From: Patescibacteria group bacterium
GTDB taxonomy: Bacteria > Patescibacteriota > Patescibacteriia > Magasanikbacterales > GWA2-37-8
Reading direction: 5' to 3'
DNA length: 64,000 nt
Assembly: GCA_041651015.1 (NCBI GenBank)
Contig: JBAZKA010000002.1
Span: forward strand, 70,163-134,162
The stretch's first letter is position 1; the number at the start of each line of letters is the position of its first letter. Made by a program: the position numbers and the translations under genes. Of this stretch, positions 19,581 to 23,533 are shown one piece after another. The notes under the pieces are model-generated. The model was not told where the DNA came from, did not search any database, and was given only the letters and a program-made list of their open reading frames with translations.

Positions 19581-20705
19581 ATGACGCATATTCTCGCGGT
19601 AATCGTTATTGTTTTATCCATAATCACATTGGTCTTTGCCAGCCACTTTTTTTTGTATTTTTCGCTAATTCATTTTTTCAAAATCGTGGACCCCGGGCTA
19701 AATTTTGCTTTAATAGTGGTATTGTCTATTTTGGCCATCAGTTTTATTGTCTCGTCGCTCATGGCTCATTGGCGCGAGAACATCGCGACCAGGATGTTTT
19801 ATTTGGTTTCGGGCATTTGGTTGGGTTTTACGGTCAATTTGGTGTTGGCACTCACGATTGGTTGGATTGTCCGCGCCATACTCATACTCGCGCACCTGCC
19901 AATAAATTCTATTTTGATCGGGTGCCTGGCCGTCGTGGCAGCAGTTATTTATTCTGTTTGGGGCGTATACAATGCTTTTCATCCGAGAATAAAAAATATT
20001 AATATAAAGATTTCTAATCTCCCGGACAATTGGCGCGGTAAAAAAGCGGTTCATGTTTCGGACTTGCATCTCGGCCATGTTTATCGGAAGAATTTTTTGG
20101 AAAAAATAGTGTTGATGATTAACTCAGCGGAACCGGAAATCGTGTTTGTCACCGGCGATTTGTTTGATGGCATGGATGGCCAGCGTTTGGATGCGCATGT
20201 GGAACCATTGAATCAAATTGTGTCCAAGCAGGGAACTTTTTTTGTCACCGGTAATCATGAAACTTATTTTGGCACAGCGCGCGCTTTGGGCATTATTTCG
20301 CAGACGAAAATCCGCGTGTTATCCGATGAAGCGGTGGATGTGGACGGTCTGCGCGTGGTCGGCGTGAGCTATGCCGAGAATTTCAGCGAACGGGATGTGG
20401 CGCAAGTGGTGCGCGACAAAATTGGCGCGGCGCCAAAACAACCGACCGTGCTTCTTTACCACAGCCCGGAGCAGATTAATGAAATTAAGGAATCCGGCCT
20501 GATTGATTTACAATTGGCCGGCCATACGCATTTTGGTCAGATGTTTCCGTTCAATTATATTACCCGTCTGATTTTTTGCGGTTATGATTACGGCTTGCAC
20601 ACTGATGGAAATTATTCTTTGTACACGACCAATGGCGCGGGCGCTTGGGGCCCGTCCATGAGAACCGGCAGCCGGCCGGAAGTGGTGGTGATAAATTTTG
20701 TGTAA
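19581..20705 (+). CDS. membrane-anchored calcineurin-like metallophosphoesterase
   Basis: Four N-terminal TM helices, then VHVSDLHLG, VFVTGDLFDG, GNHE and GHTH metallophosphatase motifs. A TGTATAAT promoter lies directly upstream. Confidence 0.8.
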   Translation: MTHILAVIVIVLSIITLVFASHFFLYFSLIHFFKIVDPGLNFALIVVLSILAISFIVSSLMAHWRENIATRMFYLVSGIWLGFTVNLVLALTIGWIVRAILILAHLPINSILIGCLAVVAAVIYSVWGVYNAFHPRIKNINIKISNLPDNWRGKKAVHVSDLHLGHVYRKNFLEKIVLMINSAEPEIVFVTGDLFDGMDGQRLDAHVEPLNQIVSKQGTFFVTGNHETYFGTARALGIISQTKIRVLSDEAVDVDGLRVVGVSYAENFSERDVAQVVRDKIGAAPKQPTVLLYHSPEQINEIKESGLIDLQLAGHTHFGQMFPFNYITRLIFCGYDYGLHTDGNYSLYTTNGAGAWGPSMRTGSRPEVVVINFV

Positions 20706-20755
20706 AAAATATTTTTTTGATATAATTATTGTTGTAATTTTTTACATCAATATTT

Positions 20756-23533
20756 ATGAGGAGGGGACCAAATAAATTTTTGATTGCGCTTGCATTGGGC
20801 GCGATTTTTATTTTTGTGAGTAAGAATTTTGTTGAGGCAAAGGTTTTGATTAGTGAGGTGAAGACGAATGATTCGTCGGAGTTTAGTAGATTTGTGGAAT
20901 TGTACAATTATTCAAGCTCTACCGAAAATTTATCTGGTTGGAAAATGTGTAAATATACTAAATCGGGATCAGAAAGTGAAAAGGTATCGTTAATTGATGA
21001 TTTCTCAAACATCCTAATAAAACCATTCGGGTATTTGCTTATTGCGGACTCCGAGTTAGTCGGTTCATCGACATCAGATGTTATTTTTTCAAAAGGCAAT
21101 CTTACAGATAATAATTATTTGTATTTATTAAATAATTACGGCGCGGTAGTTGATAGCTTTGGCTGGGGATCTGTTACGTCGGCGTATCATTCATATTTGT
21201 TTACCCCGACTTATAGTGGATCAGTTAAAAGTTTTTCCCGTTTGCCGAATAACGATACGGGGAATTGGCAGGATACGGATATTGATACGGAGGACTTTGA
21301 GACAACGACGCCAAGTCCGCAAAACAGTTCAAGTGCGTCTCGGCCGGAATATATTTCTGATACCACAACAACACCAACGAGTACGATTGAAATTCCGACC
21401 TCCACACCAGAAATACCAACTACCACACCGGACATTTCTACCACGACCACCTCAACCGTTCCGGCTATCAATACTTCATCAATCTGGGCGCAAATAAAAA
21501 TTAATGAATTTGTTTCCAATCCCGAGTCGGGAAACGAGTGGGTGGAATTTTTTAATCCGAGCACGAGCAGTTTGGATTTATCCGGCGGGTATATTTGTGA
21601 TGAACACGGAGCAGACTCATTGGACGAGTGTAAAAATATTTCGGGCGCGATCGGCGCGGGTGGTTGGTTATTTTATGATTTATTGACGACGCGTTATATG
21701 AGTAATGTCGGTGATAGTATATTTTTAAAAAATGTTGAAGGGGAAATCGTGGATGAGATAATATATGAAAAAAATACGGCGACCGAAAAAGGGCAATCGT
21801 TCGCGCGCAAAATTGACGGCGCGGACACAAATTCAATTTCTGATTGGGCTCTGACGATTACGACCACGCCCGGGGCAAAGAATGTAATTATCGCACCAAT
21901 CGTCTCTTCAGGTGGCGGTTCATCAAAAACAGTGGATAATACGGGCGATACAAAGACAGTCACCGTGGTTTCTTCATCAACCGCATATCTGGGGCTTGTA
22001 TTGAATGAAATTTTGCCAAATCCGATTGGCGCGGATACGGAAAATGAATTTATAGAAATTTTTAATACCACGAGCGCGTCCATTGATTTATCCGGCTGGA
22101 AAATTTCCGATAAAGCTAAATCGTTTACCTTGTCTGGTTCAATTTTGGCTAAAAGCTATTTGTATTTTTTGCGCAGTGAAACAAACATCGCTTTGAACAA
22201 CACGTCTGGTGAAGAAGTAAAATTAATCGCGCCCGATGATAAATTAGCGGATTATATTTCGTATAATTCGGCAGATGAGGGCGCGGCCTACGCGCGGACC
22301 GCTTCGGGCACTTGGCAGTGGACAACCAGTTCCACGCCGGGCGCGCAAAATTATTTCTTTAATGCGTCAGTTGTTTACGACACCTCCACTCCGGCCGTGG
22401 AAAAAATTATTTTTTCCGAAATTTGTCCCAACCCCAGGGGGGCGGACGCGCGCGAATTTATAGAAATATTTAACAATGACAGTGAACCGATAGATGTCGG
22501 CAATTGGACCATCGCTAATTTGAAAAAAAGATTTGTAATTCCGGAGGAGACAATAATTTATCCCGGACAATATTTGGTGTTTTACAAAGCCGTGAGTAAA
22601 CTCACGCTCAATAATTCACAGGAAGAATTAATTCTCAGAAATGCGTTCGGGCAAACCGCGGACAGCGTAAAAATCGCCGCGGCCAAAGAGAGTATGAGTT
22701 ATGCGCGTGCAAATGACGCGTGGCAATGGACCGAGGAGTCAACGCCGGCGAAAGAAAACAAAATTGTCATCACGCCGGCCGAAGAAAAATCCGTATCAAC
22801 AAAAAATAAAACGGTCTATCGCGCCATGAGTATTGCCGGAGCGCGCGAAGTCGAGGAAGAATCGGGAGTGGTGGTGAGAGGCGTGGTCTCGGCTTTGCCC
22901 GGAAATTTTGGCGTGCAGTATTTCTATATTTTTGACGGCCATGACGGAATACAAATCTATAATGCCAAAAAAGATTTTTTGAAATTTAAAATCAACGACC
23001 AAGTGGAAATAACCGGCGTGGTCGGAGAGGCGAGCGGGATAAAACGAATTCGCGCGAAAAATAAAGAGGCTATGGATATTTTATCCACGGACAATATTTT
23101 GAAACCAATGGAAAAAAGTTTGGACAAAATAAGTGAGGATGATGCCGGGCGTTTGGTCGCGGTTGAGGGCGACATCACAGAAATAAAAAGCAATTACATG
23201 TATCTGGACAACCAACTGGGAGAAATTAAAATTTATTTTAAAAAGGGAGCCAATATAAACAAAAGCGCGCACACTGAAGGCGAACAAGTGCGCGTGGTTG
23301 GGATTGTGGAAAGCGCGGGCGATGGCGTGCAAATTTGGCCAAGGAGTAACGCGGATATTATTAGTGTGAGCAGTACGCAAAAAGTGGCCGGAGAAAAAAT
23401 TTCATCTGATGAGGAAAAAGATGTTGCCTCCAAGACGCCACTCTTCGCATTTTTGGGTTTGACCGGCGCGGTGATTTTGGGATTTGTGATAAAAAATTAT
23501 GGCGCGAGTGTTATCGCTAAGTTTAAAAAATAA
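20756..23533 (+). CDS. large secreted/membrane-anchored lamin-tail-domain (LTD) repeat protein with C-terminal OB-fold-like domains
   Basis: Signal peptide, four repeats of the LTD pattern (INE..PNP.G.D.EFIEIFN......DLSGW), a Thr/Pro-rich linker, two OB-like domains (VRGVV...VQYFYIFDG; VEGDITEI...YLDN) and a C-terminal TM anchor. Confidence 0.8.
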   Translation: MRRGPNKFLIALALGAIFIFVSKNFVEAKVLISEVKTNDSSEFSRFVELYNYSSSTENLSGWKMCKYTKSGSESEKVSLIDDFSNILIKPFGYLLIADSELVGSSTSDVIFSKGNLTDNNYLYLLNNYGAVVDSFGWGSVTSAYHSYLFTPTYSGSVKSFSRLPNNDTGNWQDTDIDTEDFETTTPSPQNSSSASRPEYISDTTTTPTSTIEIPTSTPEIPTTTPDISTTTTSTVPAINTSSIWAQIKINEFVSNPESGNEWVEFFNPSTSSLDLSGGYICDEHGADSLDECKNISGAIGAGGWLFYDLLTTRYMSNVGDSIFLKNVEGEIVDEIIYEKNTATEKGQSFARKIDGADTNSISDWALTITTTPGAKNVIIAPIVSSGGGSSKTVDNTGDTKTVTVVSSSTAYLGLVLNEILPNPIGADTENEFIEIFNTTSASIDLSGWKISDKAKSFTLSGSILAKSYLYFLRSETNIALNNTSGEEVKLIAPDDKLADYISYNSADEGAAYARTASGTWQWTTSSTPGAQNYFFNASVVYDTSTPAVEKIIFSEICPNPRGADAREFIEIFNNDSEPIDVGNWTIANLKKRFVIPEETIIYPGQYLVFYKAVSKLTLNNSQEELILRNAFGQTADSVKIAAAKESMSYARANDAWQWTEESTPAKENKIVITPAEEKSVSTKNKTVYRAMSIAGAREVEEESGVVVRGVVSALPGNFGVQYFYIFDGHDGIQIYNAKKDFLKFKINDQVEITGVVGEASGIKRIRAKNKEAMDILSTDNILKPMEKSLDKISEDDAGRLVAVEGDITEIKSNYMYLDNQLGEIKIYFKKGANINKSAHTEGEQVRVVGIVESAGDGVQIWPRSNADIISVSSTQKVAGEKISSDEEKDVASKTPLFAFLGLTGAVILGFVIKNYGASVIAKFKK

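Follow-up and report, generated by a model that had tools for sequence, protein, structure and literature searches.

Two adjacent genes of a Patescibacteria group bacterium, one encoding a membrane metallophosphoesterase (MPE) and the other a large protein with lamin-tail domains and tandem OB folds (LTD-OB protein), are best explained as neighbours with separate jobs, that is a COG1408 enzyme facing the cytoplasm and a non-catalytic nucleic-acid binder at the cell surface, a reading to which we give a probability of roughly 45%. Both open reading frames lie where the preliminary description had placed them on the + strand of the window (the whole stretch of 64,000 nucleotides analysed here), as do all features given below: the MPE gene (374 aa; COG1408 / YaeI-LpxG-UpsH type) at 19581-20705 and the LTD-OB gene (925 aa) at 20756-23533. 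That description had proposed a split surface nuclease/phosphodiesterase made of the two products, which turned out to be poorly supported, the phosphoesterase domain being more likely cytoplasmic than outward-facing and the two genes being found together in one small clade. Upstream of the MPE gene, a consensus scan gave a terminator-like hairpin (19502-19525) and, after it, a promoter-like site TTGATT-17-TATAAT (19536-19564), both of them pattern matches only. The AT-rich 50-bp spacer between the genes (20706-20755) gave no promoter or terminator match in the consensus scan, and an extended -10-like TGATATAAT was read by eye at 20718-20726. The LTD-OB gene also has an alternative TTG start at 20780, preceded by AGGAGG and used in an identical database protein (P0001, 917 aa).

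The architecture described earlier for the LTD-OB protein was recovered in full, with a signal peptide, four LTDs, a Thr/Pro linker, two OB folds and an anchor. Two hydrophobic segments were found. The first (aa 4-28) belongs to a signal peptide (aa 1-28, 20756-20839; MRRGPNKF-hydrophobic-VEA/K) assigned from hydropathy and sequence, with a predicted cleavage site; the second (aa 893-914) forms the C-terminal TM anchor and is followed by a basic, putatively cytoplasmic tail (...KFKK; anchor and tail at 23432-23530, hydropathy and AF2) with a pI of 10.3. The Pfam LTD model matched four stretches (E 7e-56), and when each repeat was scanned singly all four exceeded the cut-off of 34.3 bits: repeat 1 (aa 28-138, 20837-21169) with 49.7 bits, repeat 2 (aa 245-337, 21488-21766) with 38.0, repeat 3 (aa 409-504, 21980-22267) with 59.5 and repeat 4 (aa 546-640, 22391-22675) with 65.8. 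Between the first two lies the Thr/Pro-rich linker (aa ~191-244, 21326-21487), delimited by sequence and composition. OB fold 1 (aa 688-777, 22817-23086; AF2, Foldseek, Pfam tRNA_anti-codon and DUF5689) and OB fold 2 (aa 800-870, 23153-23365; AF2, Foldseek, Pfam) make up the first and second halves of a DUF5689-type module. The AF2 model of aa 650-925 (pLDDT 85, core 96-98) consists of two beta-barrels and a C-terminal helix, the latter at aa 897-924. As the preliminary description had stated, no nuclease domain was found in the large protein by Pfam and NCBIfam searches, and no unassigned stretch of it is long enough for one. The product would be a type-I membrane protein, carrying a Sec signal peptide and exposed at the surface of the Patescibacteria (CPR) cell. 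Four Ig-like lamin-tail domains, connected through the Thr/Pro linker, would form its long acidic stalk; the tandem-OB module would sit next to the membrane, before the C-terminal anchor and a basic tail inside the cell.

The two C-terminal domains were modelled as OB folds of a type known from nucleic-acid binders. By searching the PDB with Foldseek, a fold search that had been suggested as a check, we found that the AF2-modelled OB module matches the tandem-OB nucleic-acid binders RPA, HIN-200, Teb1, Pot1 and the AspRS anticodon domain. Among 37 family members, the tRNA_anti-codon OB model was matched by all, DUF5689 by 29, and positions 34-132 of ExeM_NucH_DNase by 26 including the window protein (E 3.9e-5). 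For the window protein, the DUF5689 and ExeM matches are at or under curated cut-offs: the isolated OB fragment scored 28.7 bits against DUF5689 (cut-off 28.6; model positions 16-217 of 217), and the whole protein a borderline 25.0. The ExeM_NucH_DNase match runs from the last part of OB1 into the first part of OB2, and the matched positions precede the nuclease domain of that model. While repeat number and type vary in the stalk, the OB module is conserved family-wide, with 41% mean column identity and 14 invariant columns. Conserved aromatic and basic residues (F74, Y75, Y86, K89, K90, R115, K162, Y167, K180 and R214) were placed on the OB strands from AF2 secondary structure rather than coordinates. 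The module as a whole is net acidic (mean pI 5.3, mean net charge -4.9; positive in 2/37 members).

These matches uphold the comparison with ExeM/NucH made previously. Like ExeM/NucH/Xds (NF033680, NF033681; Shewanella ExeM, PMC6085458), the LTD-OB protein has a signal peptide, an N-terminal lamin-tail domain, a two-OB region aligning to model positions 34-132, and a linker followed by a C-terminal TM anchor with a basic cluster; an ExeM/NucH-like GG motif at the anchor start is present in many LTD-OB homologues but not in the window protein. ExeM needs its two-OB region for nuclease activity but can largely do without the LTD, and a C-terminal anchor holds it in the cytoplasmic membrane (PMC6085458). 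The two differ in that the EEP nuclease domain of ExeM (~370 aa) is wholly absent from the LTD-OB protein, which carries four LTDs where ExeM has one, reaches 30 and 23 bits with the ExeM/NucH models (cut-offs 1300 and 300), and comes from a Patescibacterium, not a Gammaproteobacterium. A second set of relatives is DUF5689 (PF18942), with DdbD of the Bacteroides thetaiotaomicron ddbABCDEF DNA-utilisation locus and RA0C_RS04920 of Riemerella anatipestifer, the latter required for natural transformation (PMC8459023). DUF5689 proteins are linked genetically to DNA uptake and DNA utilisation (PMC8459023; bioRxiv 10.1101/2025.03.18.642099), and the authors of the ddb preprint, who aligned DdbD to the p202 HIN-dsDNA structure 4JBM, propose that it binds DNA at the surface (bioRxiv 10.1101/2025.03.18.642099). 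The same 4JBM is among the Foldseek matches of the window OB module, and both sets of proteins share an extracytoplasmic, tandem-OB, HIN-like module. However, the window module stands at the base of an LTD stalk with a C-terminal helix anchor, and neither a transporter gene nor one for a nuclease was found near the window LTD-OB gene, whereas in Bacteroidota the DUF5689 genes adjoin those for a TonB-dependent transporter and for nucleases.

Two further surface systems offer partial likenesses. The role proposed here, non-catalytic DNA capture at the cytoplasmic membrane, is that of ComEA, the DNA receptor of competent bacteria, but the ComEA-type HHH domain is absent from the window protein, whose candidate DNA-binding fold is OB with a C-terminal anchor instead of HhH. 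Bacillus subtilis YhcR is a wall-anchored surface protein sharing OB folds of the Pfam type tRNA_anti-codon; its SNase and 5'-nucleotidase domains are missing from the window protein, as is any MPE domain. Several LTD-OB homologues are named 'DNA/RNA endonuclease YhcR' by JGI; their precomputed Pfam lists contain no nuclease or esterase domain, so that the name apparently derives from the OB folds. In a few family members, domains known from such systems are nevertheless fused to the LTD-OB scaffold: ComEA HHH_3 occurs with LTD and OB in P0084 (56.4 bits against TIGR00426, cut-off 53.1) and in one of 60 further members, and an LTD, SNase, LTD and OB arrangement occurs in P0332 and P0343 (Pfam) and in P0309 (phmmer). 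A full-length scan of 60 family members brought up no MPE fusion, and none is listed among the precomputed Pfam domains of the 120 nearest homologues. Given these rare ComEA-HHH and SNase fusions and OB folds of the nucleic-acid-binding kind, surface nucleic-acid capture by the large protein is a reasonable reading.

Judged from its sequence, the MPE is a widespread COG1408 membrane metallophosphoesterase of the YaeI/LpxG/UpsH group. Its length (374 aa) agrees with that of its homologues (372-374 aa), and it matches Pfam Metallophos with E 2.5e-10 and 41.6 bits (cut-off 21.5). The four TM helices and the complete metal-site motif set reported in the preliminary description were both confirmed: the AF2 model (pLDDT 91) places N-terminal helices at residues 2-32, 38-64, 68-103 and 110-132, within a transmembrane domain (aa 2-132, 19584-19976) also delimited by hydropathy and conservation, and the motifs D161xH163, G192D193xxD196, G224N225H226, H294 and G314H315xH317 of the catalytic domain (aa 136-373, 19986-20699) are invariant in a 35-sequence family alignment. 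In the TM domain, polar or aromatic positions are also conserved (H22, Y26, S28, S54, Y74, W80 and W95). The family has at least 1,477 matches, Terriglobia and Parcubacteria among them, in unrelated contexts, and several homologues are named 'predicted MPP superfamily phosphohydrolase' by JGI. Among solved structures, Rv0805, GpdQ and MPPED2 have the most similar folds, and the family profile also matches Mre11 (5e-9) and SbcD. With E. coli YaeI, the catalytic domain shares 25% identity over 251 aa. In NCBIfam, the protein matches the LpxG and YaeI models in part, far below their equivalog cut-offs (69.7 vs 350 and 64.5 vs 188, respectively). Patescibacteria are not known to have a lipid A pathway, and an LpxG function is therefore unlikely. 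UpsH/YpbG, LpxG, YaeI and YkuE have in common with the window MPE the fold, the full motif set including GHxH and an N-terminal membrane anchor, which here consists of four conserved TM helices in contrast to one in UpsH and LpxG (PMC11898649, PMC4807358) and to a Tat signal in YaeI and YkuE. If it acts as UpsH and LpxG do, the MPE might hydrolyse a phosphodiester or pyrophosphate bond in a lipid-linked sugar or another membrane-associated substrate.

As for its orientation, the distribution of K and R favours N-in/C-in in 107 of the 121 MPE family members, and an RR pair before TM4 was found in one of them. Exported members of the group, among them E. coli YaeI, which begins MISRRRFLQ, carry a twin-arginine (Tat) motif that is absent from the window MPE. 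UpsH/YpbG, a COG1408 protein without Tat signal, faces the cytoplasm by protease protection (PMC11898649), and LpxG, also without Tat signal, works at the cytoplasmic face (PMC4807358). The MPE catalytic domain is thus probably cytoplasmic too, although the charge pattern is not decisive: when short loops were counted alone, the bias was not clear, and the N-tail is very short and devoid of K or R. Moreover, an N-out topology and export by Tat have been predicted for 4-TM YkuE-like metallophosphoesterases with dual Sec/Tat (Tooke et al. 2017, PMC5449189), and the window MPE shares with them the four N-terminal TM helices followed by the MPE domain as well as a positive patch right after TM4, while missing their defining twin-arginine before TM4. 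The topology call is less secure because it depends in part on this basic patch, which the predicted Tat-exported relatives share; the patch is also partly present in periplasmic YaeI.

The preliminary description had also suggested looking for co-occurrence of the pair across CPR genomes. By using an MPE profile, we found an MPE at one of 79 species-level LTD-OB loci, 57 of them with 1.5 kb or more of upstream sequence. The adjacency is confined to a single clade, where it occurs in the window and in loci L001/L006, L086 and L087, with MPEs 55-92% identical and spacers of 7-87 bp (7 bp in L087), a range compatible with co-transcription. The same clade also includes L088, which keeps a PBP-LspA-DksA-MPE order with no LTD gene, and L085, in which the MPE adjoins an LTD gene that has lost the OB and TM parts. 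In L089 and L090 the MPE stands in unrelated contexts, again without an LTD gene. The recurrent neighbours of LTD-OB genes are housekeeping-like (FtsK-, LspA-, ComM-, DksA-, kinase- and PBP-like, going by representative sequences and by loci with matching Pfam labels). The adjacency is a lineage-specific synteny, with co-transcription possible, and not a conserved functional module.

OB folds bind sugars and proteins too, and repeats of the LTD/PKD type are characteristic of adhesins. The LTD-OB protein could accordingly be an adhesin or envelope spacer whose OB module or stalk attaches to a glycan or protein, either of a host cell or of the organism's own wall. This would suit the acidity of the entire ectodomain (LTD pI 4.2-4.8, besides the acidic OB module), the PKD domains added in most relatives (39 of the 60 scanned in full), the wide variation in repeat number and length (~650-1,500 aa), a Thr/Pro linker resembling a mucin-type stalk, and the matches of some family members to BOF/YgiW, an OB fold that illustrates that not all of them bind nucleic acid. 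But it is the OB module that is conserved while the stalk repeats vary, its closest families (DUF5689 and the ExeM OB region) are linked to DNA, the fusions seen bring no lectin or adhesin tips, and the module lies beside the membrane, whereas the binding domain of an adhesin is usually at the distal tip. We consider such a role somewhat unlikely.

For the MPE, an outward orientation as in YkuE or YaeI, independent of the LTD-OB protein and serving for example phosphate/nucleotide scavenging or wall-polymer turnover, would agree with the Tat motif of YaeI, the cell-wall location of YkuE (as cited in PMC5449189), the N-out prediction for relatives of like architecture and the N-tail without positive charges. 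It is unlikely in view of the charge bias, the near absence of RR and the cytoplasmic action of the Tat-less UpsH and LpxG; the strongly conserved polar and aromatic TM residues also suggest a membrane-embedded substrate or partner. Far less probable still is the split nuclease, in which the OB module would hold DNA, an outward MPE would cut it and the products would feed nucleotide salvage. Besides the same arguments for export, it could invoke the short spacer without terminator-like site, the adjacency kept within the clade, the nucleases of the MPE superfamily (Mre11, SbcD) and the LTDs reported from other bacteria as joined to a calcineurin-like phosphoesterase (Mans et al. 2004, cited in PMC6085458). 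Against it stand, in addition to the topology, the single MPE among 79 loci, the unrelated contexts of the MPE family at large, the L088 and L085 arrangements, fusions to SNase and ComEA-HHH instead of MPE, and nearest folds that are small-molecule phosphodiesterases and not nucleases.

The idea of DNA capture put forward in the preliminary description is therefore retained for the LTD-OB protein alone, as a reading drawn from sequence and models, and not for a joint system with the MPE. With the two genes doing separate jobs, the LTD-OB protein would most likely bind extracellular nucleic acid at the cell surface without catalysis, and the captured DNA might then be passed to separate nucleases or uptake machinery. 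The protein amounts to the ExeM/NucH scaffold (LTD, two OB folds and a C-terminal anchor) minus the nuclease domain, and looks like a membrane-tethered candidate DNA-binding receptor common in Patescibacteria.

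The two open reading frames follow each other on the forward strand with the domains given in the preliminary description: a 374-aa membrane metallophosphoesterase (MPE, 19581-20705) and a 925-aa protein built of lamin-tail domains (LTDs) and OB folds (LTD-OB protein, 20756-23533). Hydropathy indicates a hydrophobic signal sequence at the N-terminus of the LTD-OB protein, which ends in a hydrophobic TM helix and a basic tail. Scanned singly, all four LTD repeats exceeded the Pfam cut-off, and a Thr/Pro-rich linker is present as well. The C-terminal module (residues ~688-871) was modelled by AF2 as two β-barrels with a core pLDDT of 96-98. 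When this OB module was searched with Foldseek against the PDB, we found tandem-OB nucleic-acid binders (E = 2e-6 to 1e-4), including Pyrococcus RPA, the HIN-200 domains of p202 (4jbm), p204, AIM2 and IFI16, as well as Teb1, Pot1 and the anticodon domain of AspRS, so that the two OB-like domains suspected earlier are indeed OB barrels with nucleic-acid binders as structural neighbours. A PDB sequence search with the whole protein gave no match, and a PDB profile search gave generic OB folds alone (AspRS and RPA14; E = 0.3-0.6). The net charge of the module gives DNA binding no support and speaks against it, the module being acidic (mean pI 5.3). As had also been described, Pfam and NCBIfam scans detected no nuclease domain in the LTD-OB protein.

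The OB module is kept throughout the family: in an alignment of 37 sequences, column identity averages 41% and 14 columns are invariant. All 37 members matched the tRNA_anti-codon OB model, and 29 of them matched DUF5689 (PF18942) at E < 0.01 (best 7.7e-9). For the window, the whole LTD-OB protein scored 25.0 bits with DUF5689, below the gathering score of 28.6, and the isolated OB fragment reached 28.7 bits against the same threshold while covering nearly the full model. Moreover, AF2 and Foldseek indicate that the OB module shares the tandem-OB, HIN-like fold of DUF5689. Judged from these sequence scores, the LTD-OB protein is a borderline, domain-level DUF5689 member placed in another architecture and another phylum. 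It differs from DUF5689 systems in that no TonB-dependent transporter or nucleases adjoin it, the genes around it, in the window as in 79 related loci, being housekeeping-like. In the literature that we found, DUF5689 appears only in Riemerella and Bacteroides, both times in connection with exogenous DNA. Natural transformation of Riemerella anatipestifer requires the DUF5689 protein RA0C_RS04920 (PMC8459023), and the DUF5689 protein DdbD belongs to the DNA-utilisation locus ddbABCDEF of Bacteroides thetaiotaomicron, where it was proposed as the DNA-binding partner of an outer-membrane transporter and its model was aligned to the p202 HIN-dsDNA structure 4JBM (bioRxiv 10.1101/2025.03.18.642099). 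Genetic evidence for DUF5689 in DNA uptake or utilisation comes from these two genera only (PMC8459023; 10.1101/2025.03.18.642099).

The second likeness is with the extracellular nuclease ExeM, which consists of a signal peptide, an LTD, two YhcR-like OB folds, an EEP nuclease, a linker and a GlyGly-CTERM anchor (PMC6085458). In ExeM, activity requires the OB region and can largely do without the LTD, and the protein is retained in the cytoplasmic membrane (PMC6085458). The window protein has the signal peptide, the N-terminal LTD and the YhcR-like two-OB region that lies upstream of the nuclease in ExeM. Its residues 26-136 were matched by NF033680, and positions 34-132 of ExeM_NucH_DNase (NF033681), that is the part before the nuclease, were matched by 26 of the 37 family members, including the window protein (E = 3.9e-5). 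In contrast, the EEP domain is absent, with no Pfam or NCBIfam match past position 132 of the 546-position model and with the whole length of the protein occupied by other domains; whole-protein scores were 30.3 and 22.7 bits, far below the curated cut-offs of 1300 and 300 bits. As to the anchor, the window protein has a TM helix and a basic tail but not the GG motif, which 29 of 80 homologues have. As the search for the catalytic domain found none, the LTD-OB protein falls outside the ExeM/NucH nuclease family; by comparison with the architecture described in PMC6085458, we consider it as an ExeM-type scaffold that has extra LTDs and lacks the catalytic domain.

The LTD-OB family is large: an exhaustive profile search returned 6,417 cluster representatives at E ≤ 1e-3, of which 3,347 remain at E ≤ 1e-10 and 1,426 at E ≤ 1e-30. 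Pfam scans of 60 further representatives identified LTDs in 53, PKD domains in 39 and a ComEA-type HHH_3 domain in one, and no metallophosphoesterase, EEP or other catalytic domain in any of them. One database homologue (P0084) is a fusion of ComEA-HHH, LTD and OB; comEC and pilus genes were looked for next to it and none adjoin. Three others (P0332, P0343 and P0309) have a staphylococcal-nuclease (SNase) domain at about residues 245-357 of the LTD-OB scaffold, with LTD and OB also matched by Pfam in P0332 and P0343, and with the SNase domain of P0309 detected by phmmer only. The ComEA-HHH and SNase fusions tie the scaffold to nucleic acid. Unlike ComEA, the window protein has no HHH_3 DNA-binding domain, which occurs only in rare homologues. 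In its proposed mode of action, the LTD-OB protein comes closest to an ExeM without nuclease, or to a receptor like ComEA or DdbD. At NCBI, the family already has the name "lamin tail domain-containing protein", without a function, and our literature search found nothing that discusses the family or links LTDs to Patescibacteria or competence.

Several features vary among the homologues. The top profile matches P0241, P0242 and P0243 (1,411-1,511 aa) contain five or six tandem-OB copies and few or no LTDs. Many homologues, such as P0003 and the gene at 6001-9069 of locus L001, carry a strongly conserved KYLTATAGG(L/I)T-hydrophobic-RARG ending at the C-terminus, whose combination of GG motif, TM helix and basic cluster recalls GlyGly-CTERM. 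This type of ending was found in 29 of the 80 LTD-OB genes scanned, and the window encodes a diverged form of it at 23400-23530, KTPLFAFLGLTGAVILGFVIKNYG. We dropped the idea of a shared sorting signal, as no other ORF in 84 loci ends in this way, and the sorting-signal models of NCBIfam did not match the LTD-OB C-termini. Among the named homologues, the nearest belong to MAGs labelled Candidatus Magasanikbacteria or "Patescibacteria group". Many records of LTD-OB loci (L011-L017, L023, L024 and others) are titled "uncultured Gammaproteobacteria bacterium" and one "Candidatus Udaeobacter", which are probably taxonomic mislabels or bin contamination.

The MPE scored 41.6 bits with Pfam Metallophos (PF00149; cut-off 21.5). 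The metal-site motif set that had been called complete is so (D161xH163, G192D193xxD196, G224N225H226, H294 and G314H315xH317), and all its residues are invariant in an alignment of 35 MPE members. In the AF2 model (pLDDT 91, pTM 0.88), four helices (2-32, 38-64, 68-103 and 110-132) lead directly into the catalytic domain. The MPE family has at least 1,477 matches at E ≤ 1e-5 among the scored candidates, and the window MPE is 45-50% identical to proteins of Terriglobia, Parcubacteria and Moranbacteria. It partially matches LpxG (UDP-2,3-diacylglucosamine diphosphatase; NF033458) with 69.7 bits, below the equivalog score of 350, and YaeI (NF008460) with 64.5 bits, below that of 188, its catalytic domain being 25% identical to E. 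coli YaeI. Among solved folds, the phosphodiesterases Rv0805, GpdQ and MPPED2 come closest; a PDB sequence search with the whole MPE returned no match, and a profile search returned the generic MPP matches Mre11, LpxH, SbcD and Rv0805. Altogether, the MPE adds an ordinary new member to COG1408, the COG being set by JGI names and a statement in PMC11898649 and not by alignment.

The characterised members of this enzyme group are of two classes. YaeI and YkuE belong to the class exported by Tat, and for a set of relatives with four TM domains (4-TMD), an N-out orientation was predicted, with twin arginines preceding TMD4 (Tooke et al., PMC5449189). The window MPE differs from both kinds: the twin-arginine motif before TMD4 of the dual Sec/Tat YkuE-like proteins (PMC5449189) is missing, and where E. 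coli YaeI starts with MISRRRFLQ (Tat), the MPE starts with its four TM helices and is devoid of an RR motif. In the TM3-TM4 loop, RR occurs in only one of 121 MPE family members, the window MPE having a single R98. In 107 of the 121, the K+R counts point to N-in/C-in, largely through a basic patch after TM4, a patch also described for the Tat-dependent 4-TMD relatives (PMC5449189). Members without Tat motif form the second class: UpsH/YpbG faces the cytoplasm by protease protection and frees undecaprenyl phosphate from UndPP-linked wall polymers (PMC11898649), and the UDP-diacylglucosamine pyrophosphatase LpxG is classed with the cytoplasm-facing, Tat-less members (PMC4807358). In addition, the TM domain of the MPE (encoded at 19584-19976) has residues that are near-invariant across phyla (H22, Y26, S28, S54, Y74, W80, G82, W95 and G128), and these polar and aromatic positions suggest a role in binding a substrate or a partner, beyond that of a passive anchor. 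The rarity of RR, the K+R distribution and the conserved TM residues together favour, with a probability of about 70%, an MPE that faces the cytoplasm and has a membrane-associated phosphoester or pyrophosphate as its substrate, although the charge evidence leans largely on the patch after TM4.

Next to this topology, the preliminary description had proposed that the two proteins act as a split surface nuclease or phosphodiesterase scavenging DNA, for which their co-occurrence is relevant. By scanning one genome per species with a 10-sequence alignment, we found 79 LTD-OB loci in Magasanik-, Falkow-, Parcu-, Kerfeld- and Buchananbacteria and other Patescibacteria, 57 of them with an upstream flank of 1.5 kb or more before the LTD-OB gene. 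The MPE-family HMM detected an MPE in only one of the 79 (L006, from the same genome as L001). The order MPE then LTD-OB is kept in the closest relatives, L086 (61% identity) and L087 (55%). In L085 (82% identity), the LTD gene ends at the position that corresponds to residue 528, without the OB and anchor parts; L088 (56% identity) has the same PBP-LspA-DksA-MPE order and no LTD gene, and in L089 and L090 the MPE lies in an unrelated context. The LTD gene of L085 (6190-11125) is split into 423 and 115 aa with a phage portal gene (SU10_portal) ~1.2 kb downstream, which points to prophage disruption or to a chimeric assembly. The 50-bp spacer between the two window genes contains an extended -10-like TGATATAAT and no terminator-like site, and they may be co-transcribed. 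Their adjacency is a feature of one small clade, and since the MPE persists without an intact LTD-OB partner, they do not form a conserved pair. With pairing restricted to this clade, no MPE domain in the 60 scanned LTD-OB proteins and topology evidence leaning towards the cytoplasm, the split-nuclease idea is largely refuted.

The genes that do recur around LTD-OB genes, labelled from representative sequences and matching Pfam-labelled loci, are FtsK-like (25 loci), LspA-like (19), MBL-fold-like hydrolase (18), ComM-like (17), DksA-like (16) and UMP-kinase-like (11), together with PBP1-like and GyrA-like genes, and they look like housekeeping genes. A DNA-uptake operon was considered and rejected: ComM recurs two to nine genes upstream on the opposite strand, and LspA, DksA, PBP1, FtsK and GyrA recur likewise, so that its presence is housekeeping synteny and not evidence. 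The window itself looks like an ordinary Patescibacteria chromosome segment, with ComM, LspA, DksA/TraR, GrpB and DUF5671 as Pfam-matched neighbours and, farther away, ORFs like dnaA, dnaN and ribosomal protein genes (translations read by eye).

Downstream of the LTD-OB gene, we noticed an unannotated tRNA-Phe(GAA) gene with a group I intron (24364-24650, forward strand). The intron of ~217 nt (24396-24612) lies between anticodon-loop positions 33 and 34, and Rfam Intron_gpI scored 72.5 bits at 24387-24604. ARAGORN misses this split tRNA in the genomic sequence; with the intron taken out in silico (e.g. 24395 joined to 24613), it calls a 73-nt tRNA-Phe(GAA). The 3' end of tRNA-Ala(TGC), GAATCCCCGTCGGTCCAC, at 24187-24204 (forward strand) is found again ~145 nt downstream (24332-24349), behind a GC-rich spacer and just upstream of the intron-containing tRNA-Phe; this repeat could be the remnant of an integration or duplication event. 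Directly after the tRNA-Phe, a 226-aa ORF (24715-25395, forward strand), whose end overlaps tRNA-Pro (25386-25459), has no Pfam match and an N-terminus that looks like a helix-turn-helix, and could encode a mobile-element or homing-type protein.

Domain composition, folds, family relationships, distribution and the absence of a conserved pairing were established by computation. On this basis, we propose that the LTD-OB protein would be exported by Sec and kept by its C-terminal helix, with the acidic LTDs and the Thr/Pro stalk reaching outward from the cell. The membrane-proximal tandem-OB module would bind extracellular nucleic acid without cutting it, and other nucleases or the uptake machinery may then take over the bound nucleic acid. 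For the MPE, we propose that it would work at the cytoplasmic face, with a substrate that is lipid-linked or associated with the membrane, as the characterised Tat-less members of its family do on lipid-linked pyrophosphates. A bolder reading, which we hold only tentatively, is that the LTD-OB family serves as a dedicated Patescibacteria surface DNA receptor for import and salvage, a functional counterpart of ComEA and DdbD on a nuclease-less ExeM scaffold; in the clade of the window, a co-transcribed, outward MPE might then also process DNA. For small genomes in which gene order is strongly conserved, the present case cautions against taking neighbouring genes for a functional module.

It is widely believed that Patescibacteria need nucleotides and DNA from outside, and they are thought to be without de novo nucleotide synthesis; we know of no first DNA-binding protein identified at their surface. 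Because the LTD-OB family is large and well conserved, and shares with ExeM and DdbD the part that handles DNA while lacking a catalytic domain, occasionally with ComEA or SNase domains added, the LTD-OB protein, with its soluble module of ~185 residues, is a specific and testable candidate for a surface DNA receptor of Patescibacteria.
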